From the NCBI GenBank assembly GCA_036785375.1, contig JAWMAR010000650.1, positions 372,001-436,000 of the forward strand: a DNA stretch of 64,000 nt, in the 5' to 3' direction. This document shows positions 4,716 to 59,290 of this stretch, piece by piece. The notes beneath the pieces were generated by a model. The model was given only the letters and a program-made list of their open reading frames with translations, did no database searches and was not told where the DNA came from. Position 1 is the first letter of the stretch; each line of letters starts with the position of its first letter. A program made the translations under genes and the position numbers. This stretch comes from Leucoraja ocellata. Taxonomy: Eukaryota.

Positions 4716-5273
4716 GGACTGACTGCCAGTGGTTAGATCATTCATTAGGCCCTTGGAAATGAGTGATCAATGGGTTAGAAGAGCAATGATTTGGTACCAT
4801 TGAAATGTAGGGGCAAATAGGACAGAGACAGAATTGGAAATTAACGAAAGGAAAACTAAGGATCATTCCTAATACCAAGATGAAACCTTTTAAAACATGT
4901 ATGACCTGGAGCATTAACTGTGTCTGTCTTTCCACAGTTGAAGCCTGACCTACTGAGTGTTTACCGCATTTTAAACCAAGTTGAGCTGAAAATATCCAAC
5001 TGTAGGTCTGGTTCAGAACCACACAAATGACTTTCTCTTGCTAATGCTCTAAATGTACTTAGCATGCATAATAACATCACAATATTATAACCCCATGCAA
5101 CAAACATGCTATTGATACAAGCACAAGTTGCTGAGGTACCCAATCTATTGCCATGATTTGTACCATCGTCACAATCCACCCCAGATCTGCAAACAGGTAA
5201 CGTTGACAATCAAAATTATGAGCAAATATATTTTAAAGCAATCAAATGTAGCTTTCCTGCACTAGAGGCAGAT

Positions 5274-5448
5274 TCTCCTTCTTATCGAGTCCACACACAA
5301 GATTAGAAGTTGTTCAGCCAGAGCTGAACACACTGCTCTGCATCTGTATACAATGGTGTCTGTCTTGCGTTTCTTGTGCTGCTTGTGCGTGGTGGTGGAA
5401 AGATTGGTGGAAACAGGGCCGTGACGTGAACGCTCTTTCCTTGACCCC
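5274..5448 (-). mobile_element. Short non-autonomous retroposon, family 1 (5' HDV-like fold, AAG-type tail)
   Basis: Homologous to 30323-30503 and 59010-59193 with the same 5' end (GGGGT). TSD agaggcagat / agaggtagat at 5264-5273 and 5449-5458. Confidence 0.8.
5397..5448 (-). ncRNA. Putative HDV-like ribozyme, family 1
   Basis: Minus strand GGGGTC AA GGAAAGA GCG TTCACGT CAC GGCCCT G TTTCCA CCAA TCTTTCC: 6-bp P1, perfect 7-bp P2, P3 with one mismatch, L3 TTCACGT, J4/2 CCAA. Confidence 0.6.
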
Positions 5449-6244: not shown

Positions 6245-7162
6245 TTCACTCAGGATTTGGATATCTCACATATCGTTAGCATTTGAAATGTTAATTTAGA
6301 GGAACTAGTCACTTAAAGAAAAGTGGTTGCATTTGAGAACATCAACAGTTACTAGCATGCCCAAAATTACAAGTGTCGTAAACCAGTAGAAAGCAAAATC
6401 AGAAAGGTAGAGGATGGGGCAATAGAGAAAAGGATGAACACAAAGCTCATACACCCAGTCTCTGAATGTACTGGAGTTGCAGTGACATTCTATGTTTATG
6501 AGTTTTGCCCAATTTAAAGCACTTCAGAGCAATCGCTCTCCAGAGAACAATTGTGCAACACGGCTGGTTTGAAGTGACATTCGTCATCGGTCCTGTAAGC
6601 ATTGTTTACAGAAGTTGGAAATGTTAGAAAGCTACCAAAGGATGCAAAATATAGGATTCTTCAGTCATCAGTCATCAGACTGCAATCAGTATTCAAAAAG
6701 TTCCCCTTTCAAACCATTGCGCAGTTTCCACTGACCTATGTCAAGTCTGCACAACCTTTTACAGCTGTTTCACTGCTTAACCATACAAGCCAGCAGCCCA
6801 GTAGGACAGGTATTTAAGCTGCAATTTATGGCTGACAGCACTGGCATACTAACTTATACAACGAACCACATAAAATGCTGTCAAAGGGTATGTAGTCTGA
6901 GTGATGCATTGAACAGAATGCAAGAGGTGCACATCTCTATCTGCTTCCAATTGTGTGTGGTTATGACTTGTTTTCATTACACATGAATAAATTAGAGTTG
7001 GGCTGCAGAAAAGCGTCACTATTACAAGCTCTTGGAATGGCCCATTTGAAACAGCTTTGCACAGAACAGCTTGAAAGGAGCTGGGGCAACGTTTCCAATG
7101 GCTGAGACCTATAAATCTAATTGTGACCTTGTTCTTTTGTTCTAATCTTCTTCTCATGCATT

Positions 7163-8594: not shown

Positions 8595-9086
8595 CAGGAG
8601 TCGGCAACCCTTTTCTGCATAGGGGCCAGGACCCATGTCTGCGAGCAGATGGCGGGCCACATCTATCGCCATAGTGTGACACTTCGCATTAGTTTTCACG
8701 TGTTTTTCAATTAGTTTTCTGCAGTTCCCAGGTGCCTCGCTTGCCTCACTGGCTGCAGTTCCCAGTTCAGTTTGCATTCCCAGGTTACAAGAACTGGCTG
8801 CAGTTCCCAGTTCAGTTTACATCCCCAGGATACAAGAACTGGCTGCAGTTCCCAGTTCAGTTTGCATCCCCAGGATACAAGGACTGGCTACAGTTCCCAG
8901 TTCAGTTTACATCCCCAGGATACAAGAACTGGCTGCAGTTCCCAGTTCAGTTTACATCCCCAGGATACAAGAACTGGCTGCAGTTCCCAGGTCGTAAAAT
9001 GAATTGAAAACAAATACGCCTGCGGGCCGGATGATTTCGGGTTACGGACTGCATCCGGCCCCTGAGCCTTAGGTCGCCGACCCCTG
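8595..9086. mobile_element. Non-autonomous hAT (Charlie-like) DNA transposon
   Basis: TIRs caggagtcggcaacc / ggtcgccgacccctg; exact 8-bp TSD gtttagag at 8587-8594 and 9087-9094. Confidence 0.88.
8748..8992. repeat. 45-bp minisatellite, about 5.5 copies, inside the hAT MITE
   Basis: Unit caagaactggctgcagttcccagttcagtttacatccccaggata, head-to-tail with few substitutions. Confidence 0.92.
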
Positions 9087-9099
9087 GTTTAGAGGGATA

Positions 9100-9274
9100 G
9101 ACACAAAATGCTGGAGTAACTCAGCGGGTCAGACACCATCTCTGGAGAAAGTCCAGACCCATAATGTCACCTATGCACTTTCTCCAGAGACGCTGCCTGA
9201 TGCTCTGTGTTACTCCAACATTTTGTGTCTACCGTTGCTATAAACCTTGATCTGCAGTTCCTTTTATTATATAG
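9100..9274. mobile_element. Penelope-LTR-derived fold-back mini-element
   Basis: Inverted arms acacaaaatgctggagtaactcagc...tctccagag and gcagttcc tail; flanking duplication ggtttagagggata / ggtttcgagggata. Confidence 0.75.
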
Positions 9275-30322: not shown

Positions 30323-30503
30323 CTTCTTCCTCTTGTCGAGTCCACACACAAGATTAAAAGTTGTTCAGCCAGAGCTGAACACACTTCCCGGCATCTGCAT
30401 TTAATGGTGTCTGTCTTGCGCTTCTTGTGCTTCTTGTGCGTGGTGGTGGTGGAAAGATTGGTGGAATGGTGGGCCATGACGTGAACGTTCTTTCCTTCAC
30501 CCC
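30323..30503 (-). mobile_element. Short retroposon, family 1 (HDV-like 5' end, partly altered)
   Basis: Homologous to 5274-5448. P2 GGAAAGA/TCTTTCC retained. Possible decayed TSD tattgatgcac / tgttgatgtgc. Confidence 0.75.
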
Positions 30504-31810
30504 TGTTGATGTGCTGATCCTCATTGGTTGCAGTATGGTGGGCCATGTGAGAAATTCACGTCGCCTTTCTTCACCTTGGTTTCTGACGTCAGCCAGTGGC
30601 ACGGTTGAATTCTGGTTCTGCCGCGTAAGGGTGAATTGAGGATCATGTTGGTGAAGACGAACAGGTTTTTGCGCAACAAAATGTGACTTCATTGACAGCT
30701 CTATGGAAATGCATCAGAGCAGTGTCGAGGAGTATAGGAAAGTGCATCTCCAATTTCACACAGTGCCTGAGCAGAGCTTGGAGTGCTTGCTTTCCAACAT
30801 AGACCTGATGGTCCATTTTATGTCAACACATAGTCACCTGTCAATTCTCACAGCACAAGCAAAAGCCCCCCAATCTGTGTAACCTGCAGTGATAACTCAG
30901 TCTGCTACCATGCAAACACAGATTTCTCTCTTCATGTCTCGAAAGGGGTTTCCAGGACATTGCAAGTTCTCCAGTAGATTGTTAGGAGTGTGAACCTGTT
31001 GCTCCATCTCAGAATGAGGGAGGACAACAACTTCATTGATCTCACCATTGCTACTCCACCACTATCCATCAGCCAGCTCACCAGCCCAAATTGTTGCCAC
31101 ATGGAGTGACATGGTGCAGTCTGAACCTAGACTTTCTTGTCCCAGAGCTGTTCAACATCAAGGCTGTCTGCAACCTTCACTGAAGGTTAGAGGCTTTCCA
31201 CCAGCCACGTCTCCCCTCACTGACAAAGCATTCATTCAGGCACTAGTGCGGACACTAAGGAAAATACAGAGAGGTGATTCTGTAGCCTTCATGATGGCTG
31301 GATGCATATATCTAATGGTACAATGGTGTCTTTATTGTCACGTGTAACAGGTAGAATGAAATACATTTTTTGCATACAACCCAGCAAGACTATCTCCATA
31401 CATAAGTACAAACACCCTGGTCAGTACAGTGCAGCTCACTGTCCATAAGCAAGAGGCGCCTTTGGGATATTCATTTCACGCTGGCCATTATTTTGTCATT
31501 CTGGTCTACGGATGATGAGATGGTCTCTGTAATAGCAAAGGTAAGATGGTGAATTGAGATGGTAGTGCGATTTGGAGAGTTGACTCTGAATGCCTGGCCA
31601 GGAGGTGGCTCTCTATGATGCCTCCTCTGGAACATTAGACCAGAACAATATGGAGTATGAGTAGGTCACCTGGCCTAGTGAGCCTACTGTGCCATTCATC
31701 GTTCATTTCATTTATCCCCATTTCCCGTGTTCCTTGCACATGTCTTAATGCCGATGAGTTGCTGCCAACTTAAGAACGACCCTCTTATTCCCATTCCTTG
31801 CTTTCGTTAC

Positions 31811-31864
31811 GGGGTGGAAGATTGCAACCTTCACGTGTTCCGCCCTGTTTCGACGAATGCAATC
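31811..31864 (+). ncRNA. Putative HDV-like self-cleaving ribozyme, family 2
   Basis: P1 GGGGTGG/CCGCCCT (7 bp, G1-U wobble); P2 GATTGCA/TGCAATC (perfect); P3 ACC/GTT (GGT in the sister copy); L3 TTCACGT; minimal P4 with TTCG; J4/2 CGAA (candidate catalytic C at 31854). Confidence 0.75.
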
Positions 31865-31948
31865 AACCCGGTGTGCACAATGAAATAAGATCAAATAGAA
31901 CAAGTTGTCCTACAACTTTAGGCTGTGCACGCCATATGCAAGAAGAAG
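31811..31948 (+). mobile_element. Short non-autonomous retroposon, family 2 (5' HDV-like ribozyme, AAG tail)
   Basis: Ends ...cacgccatatgcaagaagaag. Approximate TSD gctttcgttac / gctatctttac. Second copy at 42413-42531. Confidence 0.82.
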
Positions 31949-32919
31949 CTATCTTTACGATAACCACATATCAATCCAGGCCATTATATTTCTTACCCAC
32001 GCCATTCCAAGTGCTTTCACCTCATTCAGCAACCTCCTGCTTGAAACATTATTGGATGCCTTCCAAAAATCGAATTATGCCACATCCACCGGTTTAACTT
32101 ATCTACAGTATTTGACAAAACACCCAAAGATCTCTAATAGGTTAATCACGCATGATTTCCCTTTTATATCATGGATACTGACTCTGCTCCATCACATTTC
32201 TTTGCAAATCTGTTATTAAATCCTTCAGCGCAGGTGCCAACATTTTCTGAACTATTGATTTTAGGGAAGAAGCCAGTTTCTCTCCTTTCTTAATTGCTAA
32301 GGTTAATTTTGCTACCTGCCAATCTGTTGGAAAAATTCCACTTCTATAGATTTTTAAAACACGATAACCAATATATCCACTATCATTGTAGCACCTCTTT
32401 CAAGTCTCTGAGATATAGATCATCACATCCTTGAGATTTATTGGTTTTCATCTCACTAACATTTCAAGAATATTTCTATCTGACACTAATTTCCTTTGGC
32501 CTTTCTTTCTTGCTTGACTTTTACTTTTCTAATAGTTCTGCCCTGTATTTTGTCTTCCTCTGTACTCATCAGCAGAAAGAATTTGTTTAATTTTCTGCTG
32601 CCTCTCTCTTTCATTTTCCATCATAAGTTTTCTTTTAAGAATCTTGTAGAACCCCTGGCAGTCTCCTTTTGTGCCTTTCTTCCTCCTTCTTCCCTTCTTT
32701 CTCCAGCCTGTGCCTGTATGGTTGCAAAGCTGAACCAATACAGCACATCCCAGTAAACATGAAGACAAGCACTTTGAATTGATTCAGGGTTTCTCCAGGC
32801 AGCAGATTTGCTGCTGAGAGTGTCCATGATCAGGTTGAACAAGTTGAAGAGGCTGGAGGGTCGTTCTTAAGTTTGCAGTGTACAATCAAATGAAAGCCCC
32901 CACTGGACTTAAGGAAAGA

Positions 32920-37379: not shown

Positions 37380-40300
37380 TCATGTCTGAACCAGAGAGTG
37401 CTGGGTTAAAAGCTTGATTTTCAGATTGAAAGCCTGTGAGTAGTAATATGCCCATTGTAGTGCGTGGGTCTCAGAATGAGGCAAGTAGTCCGCAGTTTGA
37501 GAAGCACTATACTTTATTTCCTCCCGGTTCAGGGGAAGACGAAACCAGGGGAAGATGGCACCCAAACCCTGCCTTTTATACCCTCCGGCTAAGGACCGCC
37601 TCCGGACTGCACCACTCCTGTGCCGAGGGGTTCGGCAGTATAATGGGACGACCCTTAGGAGCCGCCACAGGACCCCCCCCCCCAGAACCAGAGGCACAAA
37701 ACGCACCGGCGGGCGCACGACCCGGCCGGCCCGCGTGCGGAAGTCAGCAGATCCCGGGGCTTGCGGGGGCGTAGGTGGAGGGACAGGTCGAGGGACCGGC
37801 GGGAGGACAGGTGGAGTGACAGGTGGAGGGAGTCGTGAGGGGGGACGCCCTCGGGGCCGAGGTTGAGCAACCAGCACCGGCTGGTCAATGTCCAGGTGCG
37901 CCGGCTTCAAACGGTCAATCGACACGGCCTCCGGCCGGCCCCCCATGTCCAGGACAAAAGTCGACTGCCCGTGTTCCAGCACCCGGAACGGGCCCTCGTA
38001 CGGCCTCTGAAGTGGCGTCCGGTGGGCATCACGGCGCAGGAAGACGTATGGGCAGACCGTGAGGGCCATTGGCACGTGTGGTCGAAATGTCCCATGGCGG
38101 GATGTCGGGACGGGTGCGAGCCTGCCAACTCGCTCGCGAAGGCGTTGAAGGGCGGAGGAGGGCGTTTCCTGATGCTCCGGCGCCGACGGCACGAACTCCC
38201 CGGGCACTGTGAGTGTTGACCCGTACACCAGCTCCGCCGATGATGAGGCCAAGTCCTCTTTGGGAGCGGTCCGGATGCCCAGCATGACCCACGGCAACTC
38301 GTCCATCCAGTCCGGGCCGGTGAGCCGTGCCTTCAATGCCGCCTTCAGCTGCCGGTGGAACCTCTCCACCAGACCGTTAGCCTGCGGGTGGTAAGCCGTG
38401 GTGTGGTGCAGCTGCACCCCCAGCAAGCGAGCCATGGCTGACCACAGCTCGGAGGTGAAATGTGGCCCCCGGTCGGAGGAGATGTGCGCCGGCACCCCGA
38501 AGCGAGCAATCCAGTGCGCGGACAACGCACGAGCACACGTAGCCGATGAGGTGTCAGCCAACGGAATGGCCTCCGGCCACCGCGTGAAGCGGTCCACCAT
38601 GGTCAAAAGGTGGGTGATGCCCCGGGACGGTGGAAGGGGCCCCACAATGTCCACGTGGAGATGGTCGAACCGCCGGTGAGGTAGACCGAACTCCTGGAGA
38701 GGTGCGCGGACATGGCGCTGGATCTTTGCTGTCTGGCACGGGATGCAGGTGCGAGCCCAATGGGCAACTTGCTTGCGCAGACCGTGCCACATGAAGCGAG
38801 CTGCCACCAGTGCCGTTGTCGCCCGGATTGATGGGTGAGCCAGTCCGTGGATGACCTCGAACACTCTCCGGCGCCAGGTGGCAGGGACGATGGGGCGCGG
38901 CTGACCGGACGACACATCGCACAGGATTGTCATACCCCCAGGACCGAGAGGGACATCCTCAAGACGGAGTCCGGAGATGGCAGTCCGGTAGGTGGGCACC
39001 TCGTCGTCCGTGAGCTGTGCCGCCGCCAGAGCAGAATAGTCCAATCCGGGCGCCACCTCGAACACGGCATTTATAGCAGGGCGGGACAATGCGTCGGCCA
39101 CCCGGTTCTCTTTCCCCTTGACGTAGCGGATGGCTGTGGTGTACTCGGAGATGTAAGCCAACTGCCGCTGCTGACGTGCGGACCAGGGGTCGGAAACCTT
39201 CTGCAGGGCGAAAGTGAGCGGCTTATGGTCGGTGTAGGCGGTGAACGGGCGGCCCTCCAGGTAGTAACGAAAATGGCGCACAGCCAGGTACAGAGCCAGG
39301 AGCTCACGATCGAACGCACTGTACTTGGTCTGCGCGCGGTTGAGGTGCCGACTGAAGAAGGCCAGAGGCCGCCAAACTCCGCCCGTCAGCTGCTCCAGCA
39401 CAGCACCAACTGCCGACTCCGAGGCATCCACAGTGAGAGCAGTCGGGGCATCTTCCCGCGGGTGCACCAGCAGCACGGCCCGAGCAAGGGCCTCCTTCGC
39501 GCCGTCGAAAGCTGCCTCCGCCTCGTGGGTCCACTCAACGCTCTTCTGCTGCCCACCCGCCAGAAGTTGATACAGGGGCCGCATGATGTGGGCCGCGGAT
39601 GGCACGAAACGATGGTAGAATGCCACCATGCCGACAAATTCCTGCAGGCCGCGCACCGTGCGTGGGCGGGGAAACCGACGGACTGCGTCAACCCTGTCAG
39701 GTAGGGGAACTGCGCCTAGCGCAGTCACGCGGTGGCCGAGAAAGTCAATTTCGTTGACCCCAAAACGGCACTTGTCCAGGTTGATGGCCAAACCATGCTC
39801 GCTGAGCCGCTGACAGAGCTGTCGAAGGTGAGCGCAGTGTTCCTGCTGCGAGCGGCTGGCCACCAGGATGTCGTCCAGGTACACGAACACGAATTCGAGG
39901 TCCCGACAAACCCCGTCCATGAGGCGCTGAAAGGCCTGTGCAGCGTTCTTGAGGCCGAACGGCATCCGAGTAAACTCGTAAAGCCCGAATGGCGTGATGA
40001 TAGCCGTCTTGGGTACGTCATCCGGGTGAACCGGGATCTGGTTATAACCCCGCACCAGATCCACTTTAGAAAAAAATGTGGCCCCAGCCAAATGGGCCGT
40101 GAAGTCCTGGATGTGGGGTACGGGGTATCGATCCGCTGTTGTTGCAGCGTTCAGCCGTCGGTAATCCCCACAAGGTCGCCAGCCCCCGCTTGACTTAGGG
40201 ACCATGTGGAGTGGGGACGCCCAAGGGCTGCTCGAAGGGCGGACGATCCCCAAGGCCTCCATCGTGCGGAATTCCCGCCGTGCCAGACGCAGTTTATCTG

Positions 40301-40862
40301 GTGGCAGTCGTCGTGCTCGTGCATGGAGGGGTGGGCCGGTAGTCGGGATATAATGTACAACTCCGTGGCTGGGGGTTGCTGAATGAAACTGCGGAGTGAG
40401 AATGTCCGGGAACGCAGCCAAGATTCGTGCGTATCGGGAGTCCACGGACGCCAGTGGCCGCCCCACCGATTGACCCAAGCGCAATGTGATCGGCTCCATT
40501 GTAGTGGCGTTGACCAAACGCTGACGCCCGACGTCCACCATGAGGGAATGCGTCCGGAGAAAATCGGCCCCGAGCAATGGTTGGGAGACGTCGGCAACGG
40601 TAAAATTCCATGAAAAATGGCAGGAGCCGAGCACGATGGGAACCATGCGCAGTCCATATGTGCGGATGGGGCTGCCGTTCGCCGCGGTGAGGACGGGCCC
40701 CCGCTTACCGGAACGAATGTCGGCCAGCGAAGGGGGCAGGACGCTGAGCTCCGCACCTGTATCCACGAGGAAGCGAGTCCCGGAGCGCCGATCCCAAGCG
40801 AAAAGGCGGTGAATTTGGCCGGCCACCGCGGGGACTATTGGCAGCCGGCCCAGGCGTTTCCC
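37380..40862 (-). CDS. pol: Pol polyprotein (protease, RT, RNase H, integrase), reached by -1 frameshift
   Basis: Protease FLVDTGA; [11 protein letters not shown]; RNase [14 protein letters not shown]; integrase HHCC, DDE (VDIVG, SDRG, LVERF) and GPF motif. No internal stop; the first stop lies beyond the element. Confidence 0.93.
37456..37669 (-). repeat. 3' LTR of the Gypsy element
   Basis: Identical to 41818-42031. Minus strand carries TATAAAA (~37574-37580) and AATAAA (~37513-37518). Confidence 0.95.
40817..40862 (-). promoter_or_regulatory. Programmed -1 ribosomal frameshift signal
   Basis: Slippery heptamer G GGA AAC (40856-40862) in the gag frame, 5-nt spacer, then an 11-bp stem GGCCGGCTGCC/GGTGGCCGGCC. 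Confidence 0.8.
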
Positions 40863-41788
40863 GGGAACGTGCATGGCTGGCGGCATTGTCGTGCTGCAGC
40901 ACCCCAGCGCTGATGGAAATAGCACCAGCTCCTTGTGTTCGTGCTATTTTGAGCTTGCCTGCCCCTGCTGGTGGTGCCTGCAGCTTGCTGGCGCTGGACT
41001 GCAGGTGCAGTACCCCTCACTGCCGCTGGGGGTAATCGAACGGGCCGTCGGGCTGGAGCTGTCACTCCTTCCACAGCTCCCCCGCCCCACCGGAGGAAAT
41101 CGGGAGCTGCTGGGCTGACGTCATCGGTGTGCCTGCCGACGGCCAGCGCGTTGACGTCACCGGCGTGCCTGCCGACGGCCAGCGCGTTGACGTCATCCCG
41201 GCGCGTCGACCTCAGCGCGACCTCGTCTCTGCTGACGCCCAGCGCGCTGACGTAATCAGGGCGCGCCATCCACATGGCGTCGGCGCGCCTCCCGAGGGCC
41301 CGAAGATCAGCAAACGAGGCGTCGGTGAGTTGCAATCGAATGTAGGCCGGCAGCAGATGCAGGTAAGTATATTCAAACAACAGGCATGGCGTGTGCCCGT
41401 CTAATAACGCCACCATTTCCTTTAGGAGGGTAGATGGCCGCCGGTCGCCCAGGCCCCCCATATGCAGGATCCTACCTGCCCGCTCCATCCTACTTAGTCC
41501 ATAAATTTGGAGCAGGAGCTGTTTCAGGCCGAGGTATTTGTCATTGTCCGGGGGGGCTGCGAGGAAGTCCGATACTTCTTCCACCGCATCCTGGTCGAGG
41601 GCTCCCACCAGGTAATAGAAGCGGGTGGCATCGACCGTGATGCCCCGCAGGTTGAACTGGGCCTCCGCCTGCTGGAACCAGATGAGCGGCCGTGTGGTCC
41701 AGAAGCTGGGCAGTTTTACGGAGACCGCGTCTAGAGACAGGGTCGGGCTGGCGTGTGAGGAGGTAGGGCTTTGTTCTGTCTCCATCAT
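40835..41788 (-). CDS. gag: Gag protein (317 aa from the first ATG after the PBS)
   Basis: [25 protein letters not shown]-terminal motif; C-terminal CYFH-x9-C-x3-C (CHCC) motif typical of the CsRn1 lineage. Confidence 0.88.
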
Positions 41789-41817
41789 GATGCCAATGGA
41801 GCATCGGGGGTCACCAA

Positions 41818-42031
41818 TGTAGTGCGTGGGTCTCAGAATGAGGCAAGTAGTCCGCAGTTTGAGAAGCACTATACTTTATTTCCTCCCGGTTCAGGGGAAG
41901 ACGAAACCAGGGGAAGATGGCACCCAAACCCTGCCTTTTATACCCTCCGGCTAAGGACCGCCTCCGGACTGCACCACTCCTGTGCCGAGGGGTTCGGCAG
42001 TATAATGGGACGACCCTTAGGAGCCGCCACA
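41818..42031 (-). repeat. 5' LTR of the Gypsy element (promoter)
   Basis: Identical to the 3' LTR; followed on the minus strand by the PBS at ~41807-41816. Confidence 0.95.
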
Positions 42032-42412: not shown

Positions 42413-42531
42413 CTTCTTCTTCTTCTTGCATGTGGCGTGCACAGCCTAAAGTTGTAGGACAACTTGTTCTATTTGATTGTGCACGCCACGCTGAAATGGC
42501 AGACCACGTGAAGGTTGCAATCTCCCACCCC
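42413..42531 (-). mobile_element. Short retroposon, family 2 (internally deleted copy)
   Basis: Starts GGGGTGGGAGATTGCAACCTTCACGTGGT; (AAG)n tail; 12-bp TSD actatagaagtt at 42401-42412 and 42532-42543. Confidence 0.82.
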
Positions 42532-44264: not shown

Positions 44265-45663
44265 AGTCAAGCCTGACTTATTGAAGGTGCTGGGGATTTG
44301 GTTCGAGGGGGTGGAGTCGTGTGACAAGAATTGGCTGGAGAGGATAGCCAAGGTGAGGAAGAAACGGGAGCTGTGGAAGCAGCACTCCCTCTCTAAAACG
44401 GGGTCGTCGGGTGTGAGGTGCTCTCGGGGCTGCTGTACTTGGCGCATGTGTGACCTGTCCCTCCTTCCTACGCCACAGGGATCACCGGGCCATCTTCCAG
44501 TTCATCTGGGGGTCAAGGATGGACCAGGTGCGACGGGCCACAATGTACAAGTCAGCAGACAACGGGGGTAAAAGTGTGCCCAACGTCGCCCTCACCCTGA
44601 TGGCCACCTTCATGTGTGACTGCATCAGGCGGAGTGTAGAGCCAAGGCACGTGGGCACCAAGTGTCACTACCTGCTGAGGTTCTACCTGTCCCAGGTGTT
44701 GCAAAGGATGGGCCTGGCACAGATGCAACGCAATCTGCCAGTCAGCTGGACATTGCACACCATCTGTCATTTGTGGAAAGGTTCTTCCGGACCAACACCT
44801 TTGACCACAAGTCCATCGTGCAGTGGTCAGCACGGAACGTCCTGCAAGGCACTGCAGGGAAAGGACTCGATGGATCCTGTGGTGTGGTTCACAGAGCGGA
44901 CTGCCCAGCTTGTCTGGCAAAATGCCTCATCACCAGAACTCACCAACAAGCACCAATTCCTGGCTTGGCTGGCGGTGAGGAGAGTCCTCCCAGTCAGATA
45001 CTTCCTGCACCGTCGGAACCTCACTGCCAGCGCACACTGCCTTCAGGACGGCTGCTATGGAGAGGAGACGGTTGCCCACCTCTTTGCAGAGTGTGGATTT
45101 GCAAATAAAGTCTGGAGAGGTTTCCAAAGGTCCCTGTCACGATTTAGTCTGACCAGCTCTGTCCCAGAGGACTCTGTGATTTATGGACTGTTCCCAGGGA
45201 CACATTCCGAGACTGACTTTGAGTGCTGCTGGAAGGTCATCAACTCGGTGAAAGAAGCTCTTTGGTCTGCCTGAGCTTTATTGACCGCCCAACGGAGCGA
45301 GATGTCCATCAGGGAATTTTGCCAACTGGACCGCTGCAGACTGCAGGAGTACGTGCTGAGGGAAGCACTGAAGCTTGGTGCAGCCAACGGCAAGGCTCGG
45401 TGGGGGAGGACCACATTCTAGGGTCAGGGTATGGGGGGCAGAGTGTGGTGGAGACATCCCTCAAAATAAGGGAAGAGATTTCACGCCAGTGGGCGACATG
45501 AGTGGCAAGGGTGGAGGATAAAATTATGAAATTTGAGCAATGTGCATAAACAGTATTGAATGTTTGTATAGCCTCTGAAAATGTCGGATGAATTTTTTGC
45601 ACAGTTCATGTATTGAACATATTTAGTACTTGAATAAAGACTACTTTGAAAATTAAAAAAAAG
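44265..45663 (+). mobile_element. 5'-truncated Tx1/L1-group LINE (ORF2 C-terminus, frameshifted)
   Basis: LKVLGIWF, IFQFIWG and zinc knuckle CLQDGC...ETVAHLFAEC; 3' aataaa and A-rich tail. Confidence 0.85.
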
Positions 45664-58839: not shown

Positions 58840-59290
58840 GTACAGTGGCGCAGCGGTAGATTTGCTGCCCAACCACACTTTCAGCGCCTGAGACGTGGGT
58901 TCAATCCCGACCACAGGTGTTGCCTGTACCGAGTTTGTATGTTCTTCCCGTGACTGCGTCGGTTTCTTCCCACAATGGTGTAATGGCACCTAGTGTGTTT
59001 TGGATAGTGCTTCTTCTTCTTATCGTGTCCACACACAAAATTAGAATTAGAAGTTGTTCAGCCAGAGCTAAACACACTTCTCTGCATCTGCACACAATGG
59101 TGTCTGTCTTGTCGCTTCTTATGCTTCTTGTGCGTGGTGGGGGAAAGATTGGTGGAAACAGGGCCGTGACGTGAACGCTCTTTCCTTGACCCCAGGATAA
59201 ATGTGCAGGGATTGCTGGACGGTGCGTTCTCAATGGGCTGAAGGGCCAGATTCTGCGCTGTATGTCTAAACTAAACTAAAACTAAACTAC
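58840..59290 (+). mobile_element. V-SINE with a nested family-1 HDV-like retroposon (59010-59193, minus)
   Basis: SINE head at 58840-58975 and (ctaaa)n tail; the insert has the same 52-nt 5' fold (59142-59193) as 5397-5448. Confidence 0.8.

Follow-up and report, generated by a model that had tools for sequence, protein, structure and literature searches.

Element A, a short non-coding retroposon in DNA of Leucoraja ocellata, very probably carries, exactly at the 5' end, an HDV-like ribozyme, as judged from the sequences of its copies and relatives. We consider it likely that this predicted self-cleaving fold, located at the first base of the element, frees its RNA from read-through transcripts for use by the enzyme of a Vingi/Ingi-type LINE. 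The element was studied in a stretch of 64,000 nt, hereafter the window, and its parts are listed in Table 1 along with related and neighboring features.

Table 1. Element A, its predicted ribozyme, and related or neighboring features (window positions unless a locus is named)
Feature	Position	Strand	Remarks
Element A	31811..31948	+	Non-coding short retroposon copy, 138 nt with AAG tail
Predicted HDV-like ribozyme fold of A, without P4	31811..31864	+	First 54 nt of the element
P1 of A	31811-17/31840-46	+
J1/2 of A	31818-19	+
P2 of A	31820-26/31858-64	+
P3 of A	31827-29/31837-39	+	Mismatch at 31838 in the window copy
L3 of A	31830-36	+
J1/4 of A	31847-48	+	GU
Linker of A	31849-53	+	5 nt
J4/2 of A	31854-57	+	CGAA
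Predicted catalytic cytosine of A	31854	+	First base of J4/2
3' body of A	31870..31933	+	Enclosed by a predicted 10-bp helix, 31870-79/31924-33
(AAG)n tail of A	31940..31948	+
Left target-site duplication of A	31800..31810	+	11 nt, 2 mismatches relative to the right copy
Right target-site duplication of A	31948..31958	+
Second copy of A	42413..42531	-	Perfect 12-nt target-site duplication at 42401-12 and 42532-43
Family B copy	59011..59193	-	P4-less core, other helices than A; 3' part from V8; Rfam CPEB3 22.5 bits (cut-off 35)
Family B copy	5273..5448	-	
Family B copy, degraded core	30324..30503	-
V2 LINEs	L262, L263, L267, L275, L448, L467		Full-length, ribozyme fold at start
V5 LINE	L477		Full-length, ribozyme fold at start
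Young Gypsy-type LTR element	37452..42031		Two identical 218-nt repeats; minus-strand ORF of 1,187 aa in which protease, RT, RNase H and integrase were matched
Tandem repeat	8703..9038		45-nt unit
LINE fragment	44417..45274		With zf-RVT

Copies of A are abundant. The exact 5' 21-mer occurs at 9,156 places in the genome and the exact 3' 20-mer at 6,860, while the reversed-pattern control gave 0 for each. The exact 5' motif was present in 20 of 50 A copies picked by the 3' motif among the matches listed, which suggests that the family occupies very roughly 2 x 10^4 places in the assembly. This assembly comprises 3.44 Gb with duplicated haplotypes, and the window itself is present again on another contig. 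At least eight organism labels contain half or more of A's sampled words. When the window copy was compared over its whole length, 38 other places were 95-98% identical to it (40 were scored; the remaining two were the window and its duplicate). Its insertion is common to three other organisms, in whose contigs the flanks continue into the element, and no empty allele was seen in contigs of public sequencing runs. Across 152 independent full-length copies the mean difference from the majority base of each column was 5.2%, and a target-site duplication (TSD) was detectable in 114 of them, with a length of 11-12 nt in 75. A is dispersed, ends in a microsatellite tail, has variable TSDs, lacks terminal repeats and is sometimes 5' truncated, as expected of a non-LTR retroposon formed as a TPRT product. 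The claim of a sequence-only reading of the window that this is a mobile element is thus upheld by its dispersed copies, AAG tail and 11-12 bp target duplications. The letters and coordinates which that reading gave for 31811-31948 proved correct when the window was re-read, as did the AAG repeats at the end and the approximate TSD, an 11-nt duplication with two mismatches.

The sharp 5' end that had been claimed was recovered as well. Among the matches listed, 28 of 39 independent 3'-anchored loci begin at G1, and the remaining 11 have 11 different start positions. This set comes from the 3'-motif matches, of which the first 100 were listed and 50 of these were read: a script gave 38 loci, L392 was restored, and L326 was merged by hand with its full-length twin L328. 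Unrelated flanks also depart from 31811 in 159, 245, 184 and 38 contigs of four public runs. All runs compared consist of contigs, and the only one labeled as RNA is probably DNA. A defined start should be read with the caveat that short elements are mostly full-length whatever the mechanism. At the junction between TSD and G1, 88 of the 114 copies with a TSD have no extra base, 11 have a single T and 4 a single G; in 30 copies the junction is ambiguous, as the TSD may reach into the starting G run. Work on L1 leads one to expect an extra G before the 5' end when a cap is copied. On that expectation, the scarcity of extra Gs before G1 fits an uncapped template. A T immediately precedes G1 in 83 of 152 copies of A and in 19 of 27 copies of a second family, B, mostly as the last TSD base; this is an insertion-site or second-strand preference.

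The mapping of the HDV fold onto the first 54 nt held in most of its parts. In the window copy all seven claimed pairs of P1, including G1-U, and all seven of P2 can form, and the 7-nt L3 and J4/2 CGAA with C31854 are both present. P3 does surround the 7-nt loop, as the reading had it, but in the window copy it is interrupted by a C-U mismatch at 31838, where 118 of 127 ungapped copies of A have C-G at the equivalent position. This mismatch likely results in a misfold, since it lets P1 lengthen by two A-U pairs. The TTCG-capped P4 could not be sustained: the candidate amounts to one U-A pair at most, and P4 is therefore effectively absent in A. The sister copy was said to have a perfect P3, which it has, but through a 15-nt deletion it has lost its catalytic C together with J4/2 and the greater part of the P2 3' strand; among 30 loci fetched with this copy as query, the deletion was common only to its duplicate L082. 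Due to the P3 mismatch in one and the loss of the catalytic C in the other, both copies would be poor cleavage substrates.

A structural HDV descriptor, the kind of search that had been suggested, matched the window three times, at element A and at two family B copies. The mean over 100 dinucleotide shuffles was 0.06 matches per window, and a tighter descriptor gave 0 matches in 200 shuffles of the window; since the descriptor was written after the element had been seen, this null favors A. In the Rfam scan of the window A was unmatched at E<=5, as were two other A copies, and the pseudoknot-blind folding energy of the 54-nt head was ordinary (z -0.88), a measure that is uninformative for a pseudoknot. 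The descriptor also matched a separate repeat, presumably DIRS-like, at 145-265 (oriented) of L072, which has the same 7-nt loop together with a long J1/2 and P4 and may be a chance match; similar letters occur in L257 and L278.

In intact A copies all 17 pairs plus C22-G37 (P1.1) can form. Each individual pair is kept in 117-127 of the 127 ungapped copies, G1-U36 in 119 of them, and the predicted catalytic position (C44, equivalent to 31854) is C in 115, T in 11 (it is a CpG site) and A in one. Fully intact heads were found in only 58 of the 127, and the window copy is not among them. Compared with one another, A copies show neutral decay, mostly at CpG, and no covariation. Recurrent non-CpG changes in the head are confined to J1/2 and the N of J4/2, while the body has nine; in subfamily A', J4/2 is CTAA. 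Head deletions occur in 24 of 155 copies and have 23 different breakpoints, so ribozyme-dead forms make no subfamilies in the sample. Because part of the sample was picked by head patterns, these counts of head conservation are biased.

Two-sided changes in the pairs are seen between families. Relative to A, family B keeps 16 of 16 pairs, with 8 changed on both sides; the LINE family V2 keeps 17 of 17, again with 8 changed on both sides; and family C keeps 16 of 17, with 10 changed on both sides, its one broken pair being the only one across B, V2 and C. In A, A', B, C and V2 the helices differ, L3 is fixed, and J4/2 is always C-N-A-A; the catalytic C is thus also present in the A', B, C and V2 heads. 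For this comparison the segments were set by hand in four lineages, and a MAFFT cross-family alignment, which misaligned at P4, was left out. The preservation of P1, P2 and P3 across copies that had been anticipated is therefore seen at two levels, within A as the maintenance of each pair in at least 117 of 127 copies and between related families as two-sided change. Where P4 would stand, A, A' and B each have a linker of 5 nt, and the corresponding lengths are 15 nt for C and 25 nt for V2; with only 5 nt available, A and B are P4-less minimal forms.

Family B indicates where such elements may come from. It is ~176 nt long, with a 6-bp P1 and no P4. A TSD of 10-14 bp accompanies 18 of 27 copies, and a first look at the genome gave 2,895 candidates. 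Its last 76 nt are 85.5% identical to the Vingi-type family V8 (E 7e-19), and this 3' end supports the view that B is an internally deleted derivative of a Vingi-type LINE. An RT motif (250 places) and a C-terminal motif (1,293 places), which we take to be Vingi signatures, together led to about ten Vingi/Ingi-type families among the matches listed, most with AAG tails. Full-length V2 LINEs, ~3.1 kb long, have as their first base the G1 of an HDV-like fold, whose P4 takes up 25 nt and whose L3, J1/4 and J4/2 are the same as in A; these LINEs have 10-11 bp TSDs and AAG tails. In V2 copy L263, APE and RT were matched across three frames, and the RNase H domain was not matched. By the published definition, Vingi LINEs have one compact ORF that contains APE and RT but lacks RNase H (PMC13708176). 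Most of the best database relatives of V2 are ~1,000-1,050 aa long and lack PF00075, RNase-H forms appearing only at 33-35% identity; the name Vingi is attached to none of V2's closest database relatives. A partner of Vingi/Ingi type, as had been proposed for A, accordingly has candidates in this genome: it contains LINEs with the same ribozyme core and AAG tails, and B appears to derive from one. A further Vingi-type family, V1 (L240, oriented ~1265-1365, one copy), apparently starts at an HDV-like fold in which P3 is ACC/GGT and L3 differs.

The head of A has the same core as those of V2 and V5 and different helices, and A probably arose, as B did, by internal deletion of a Vingi-type LINE. 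No autonomous LINE sharing both ends with A was found in five pattern or family searches, whose filters would sometimes let a parent slip through and three of which covered their first 100 matches. The two Vingi motifs (~60 and 46 loci read of the 250 and 1,293) yielded no family with A's ends among the matches listed. A general core pattern gave 90 matches against 17 in the control, and the 43 different places read contained no LINE with A's own head. The 3' 50 nt of A showed no significant likeness to ten sampled Vingi/Ingi-type families, RTE or family B; the best 3'-end comparison reached z 2.3 (10 of 300 shuffles) in 26 comparisons made for A and A'. Several candidates were rejected. RTE loci found via DUF6451 (39 different places of 150) belonged to a single family whose 3' end is unlike that of A, and PF14529 loci (two read of 30 fetched) were I-group LINEs with ORF1. 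A pattern combining A's head with a different body gave 143 matches, and all 48 read among the matches listed were deletions, insertions or truncations of A; combining the head with a different P4 gave 25, and all 17 read were variants of A. An 11-nt match between the V1 3' UTR and the head of A was judged possibly due to chance. The I-group LINEs at L142 and L153 form a young family that has ORF1 and in which the ORF2 frames, 1,133-1,268 aa long, are open.

Could the partner instead be an RTE LINE? In this case the ribozyme would work as proposed, and the mobilizing enzyme, perhaps also the head, would come from RTE rather than from a Vingi/Ingi-type LINE, which we regard as unlikely. An AAG tail and TSDs (9 and 11 bp) are also features of the RTE LINE that was sampled; it begins at P1 of its own HDV-like fold, whose P2-P3-L3-P3' strand agrees with that of A in 17 of 20 nt (hand count). 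The P2 5' strand and P3 of a second RTE-type 5' UTR (L434) are exactly those of A, and bipartite RTE derivatives are common (PMC5786205). The AAG tails and the RTE fold with A's P2 and P3 letters make such a partner possible. However, in the RTE folds the P1 5' strand is C-rich, the P1.1 pair is swapped and P4 takes up ~100 nt, whereas the G-rich P1, L3, J1/4 and J4/2 of A are as in Vingi-type heads. The RTE 3' stem-loop is absent from A, whose last bases before the tail resemble Vingi/Ingi-type ends by eye, a likeness that is not significant. By hand reading, Vingi-type V1 also appears to have the ACC/GGT P3. Hand-mapping of the RTE LINE (L197, L191; oriented ~830 and ~1232) places C at +1 and pairs a G of L3 with a C of J1/4, and L434, also mapped by hand, contains a short RTE derivative of bipartite build that carries the same 5' motif.

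With a Vingi/Ingi-type partner, the process would begin when a host or neighboring transcript reads through a copy of A. The 54-nt fold would cleave 5' of G1 by means of C31854. The LINE protein, with its APE endonuclease and RT, would then take the 3' end, nick the DNA and prime on the AAG tail. Reverse transcription would reach G1, whereupon second-strand synthesis would leave the TSD of 11-12 bp. In vitro self-cleavage is documented for R2 SIDEs (PMC3414825) and NARTc (PMC3185411), and P4-less HDV-like ribozymes do cleave (PMC10879173). An internal promoter firing at +1 would yield the same 5' end, and L1Tc has both a promoter and a ribozyme (PMC3185411).

This last point leads to a second alternative, which we hold to be quite unlikely: the head, inherited from the 5' end of a LINE, would have ceased to cut, or would do so too slowly to count, and would serve as an internal Pol II promoter or an RNA-stabilizing cap, so that the 5' end of A would be a transcription start. 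In L1Tc the same first 77 nt act as promoter and ribozyme (PMC3185411), and the linker that replaces P4 in A has only 5 nt. Against this, the catalytic C and C-N-A-A have been kept in A, A', B, C and V2 despite two-sided changes in the helices, and a single extra G before G1 is rare (4 of 114 copies, in 30 of which the junction is ambiguous). It is very improbable that A is just an ordinary Pol III SINE whose head is tRNA-derived and degenerate, the pseudoknot being incidental. Its length and tail are SINE-like, and A- and B-box look-alikes with two mismatches each lie at positions 2 and 38; however, no B box with fewer than two mismatches exists in A and no such A box in its head, ARAGORN reports nothing in A, and the same core heads protein-coding LINEs. 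A chance match of the HDV mapping within a repeat, to which the missing Rfam match and unremarkable folding energy might point, has next to no probability left and is already largely refuted by covariation between families; the fold also begins at the first base of the element and is met in none of 200 shuffles, and relatives exceed the Rfam CPEB3 cut-off.

The Rfam CPEB3 model (RF00622, cut-off 35 bits) scored the V2 heads at 64.2 and 59.2 bits, V5 at 50.1 and family C at 53.6 and 46.9, all above the cut-off. Scores for L482 (32.7 bits) and B (22.5-25.3 bits) fell below it, and the A, V1 and RTE heads gave no score against this model. The V2 head equals the Rfam CPEB3 consensus at 41 of 49 positions outside P4, most helix letters included (hand count). 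A sea-urchin ribozyme is reportedly CPEB3-like in a similar way. Two further CPEB3-like heads without a LINE ORF behind them were seen, at L253 1815-1878 (+), L476 4135-4208 (-) and L482 4163-4241 (-); in L482, a ~190-nt element, the head is joined to a Vingi-type 3' end and has 22 consecutive bases in common with the Rfam consensus. A itself is identical to the CPEB3 ribozyme in L3, J1/4 and J4/2; the CPEB3 ribozyme, however, is single-copy, conserved, intronic and has a P4, whereas A has another P2 and P3.

The CPEB3 link calls for caution, since R2 and HDV have 21 of 27 core bases in common and CPEB3-related sequences are known from non-mammalian genomes (PMC8256844). It has been proposed, in a general way, that intronic HDV ribozymes were domesticated from transposons (PMC7761336). 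In the available part of a study of the ancestral CPEB3 ribozyme (PMC8233481), the terms 'origin' and 'retrotranspos' do not occur, and we found no paper in the published literature that ties the CPEB3 ribozyme to Vingi. We tentatively suggest a joint reading, plausible to us if somewhat on the doubtful side: Vingi-type LINEs would be a ribozyme-headed clade that repeatedly sheds very small retroposons able to cleave themselves (A, B and, in this genome, probably another two), two of them running on P4-less minimal ribozymes such as are mainly known in phages, and the mammalian CPEB3 ribozyme would be the domesticated 5' end of such an element. CPEB3-like heads on Vingi-type LINEs offer a concrete donor candidate for this conserved mammalian ribozyme.

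If A cleaves, it would be about the smallest design for a self-releasing retroposon, with a 54-nt ribozyme standing in for a promoter and ~75 nt for the LINE enzyme. With copies on the order of 10^4, it would place potential cut sites by the thousand in transcripts, and minimal HDV-like ribozymes would be shown to function in animal genomes. Vingi proteins are under development as RNA-templated gene writers (PMC13708176), and natural minimal templates would thus be directly useful. We found no report, in the published literature, of a P4-less ribozyme amplified in an animal genome or of a CPEB3-like head on Vingi-type LINEs; repeat catalogues may contain them.

Ribozyme-headed, internally deleted LINE derivatives have already been described as a kind, in the form of R2 SIDEs, NARTc and RIME; what is apparently new in A is the combination of a minimal ribozyme, an animal host and a high copy number. 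The R2 SIDEs and R2/R1 SIDEs of Drosophila are, like A, short non-coding LINE derivatives with an HDV-like ribozyme head. In R2 SIDEs the ribozyme frees the SIDE from its co-transcript, the 3' end is used by the LINE protein, and compensatory changes are found relative to the parent ribozyme; they occupy one site in 28S rDNA, are ~530 nt long (R2Dwi_SIDE), and have a large ribozyme with demonstrated cleavage (PMC3414825). A, in contrast, has 138 nt and no P4, is dispersed at about 10^4 sites, and its cleavage is predicted. NARTc, RIME and SIDER, derivatives of L1Tc/ingi, are, like A, dispersed and non-autonomous; they belong to the Ingi group, and their +1 base is the ribozyme cleavage site, as is predicted for A. 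They differ in their trypanosomatid hosts with polycistronic transcription, a 77-nt head with P4 and promoter activity, and known parents (PMC3185411, PMC4035085). Bipartite Vingi and RTE elements consist of a LINE 5' end and 3' end (PMC5786205), a description that B fits by its 3' part; A would work in a similar way. Derivatives of this sort are on record for RTE, Ingi, Vingi and R2, and Vingi is absent from the ribozyme-bearing clades that the accessible portion of that source lists (PMC5786205). In their lack of P4, length of ~54 nt and catalytic C in J4/2, drz-Mtgn-1 and the theta ribozymes are like A (PMC10879173). Nearly 99% of minimal P4-less ribozymes are found in tailed phages, often near tRNAs (PMC10879173), whereas here two families head animal retroposons.
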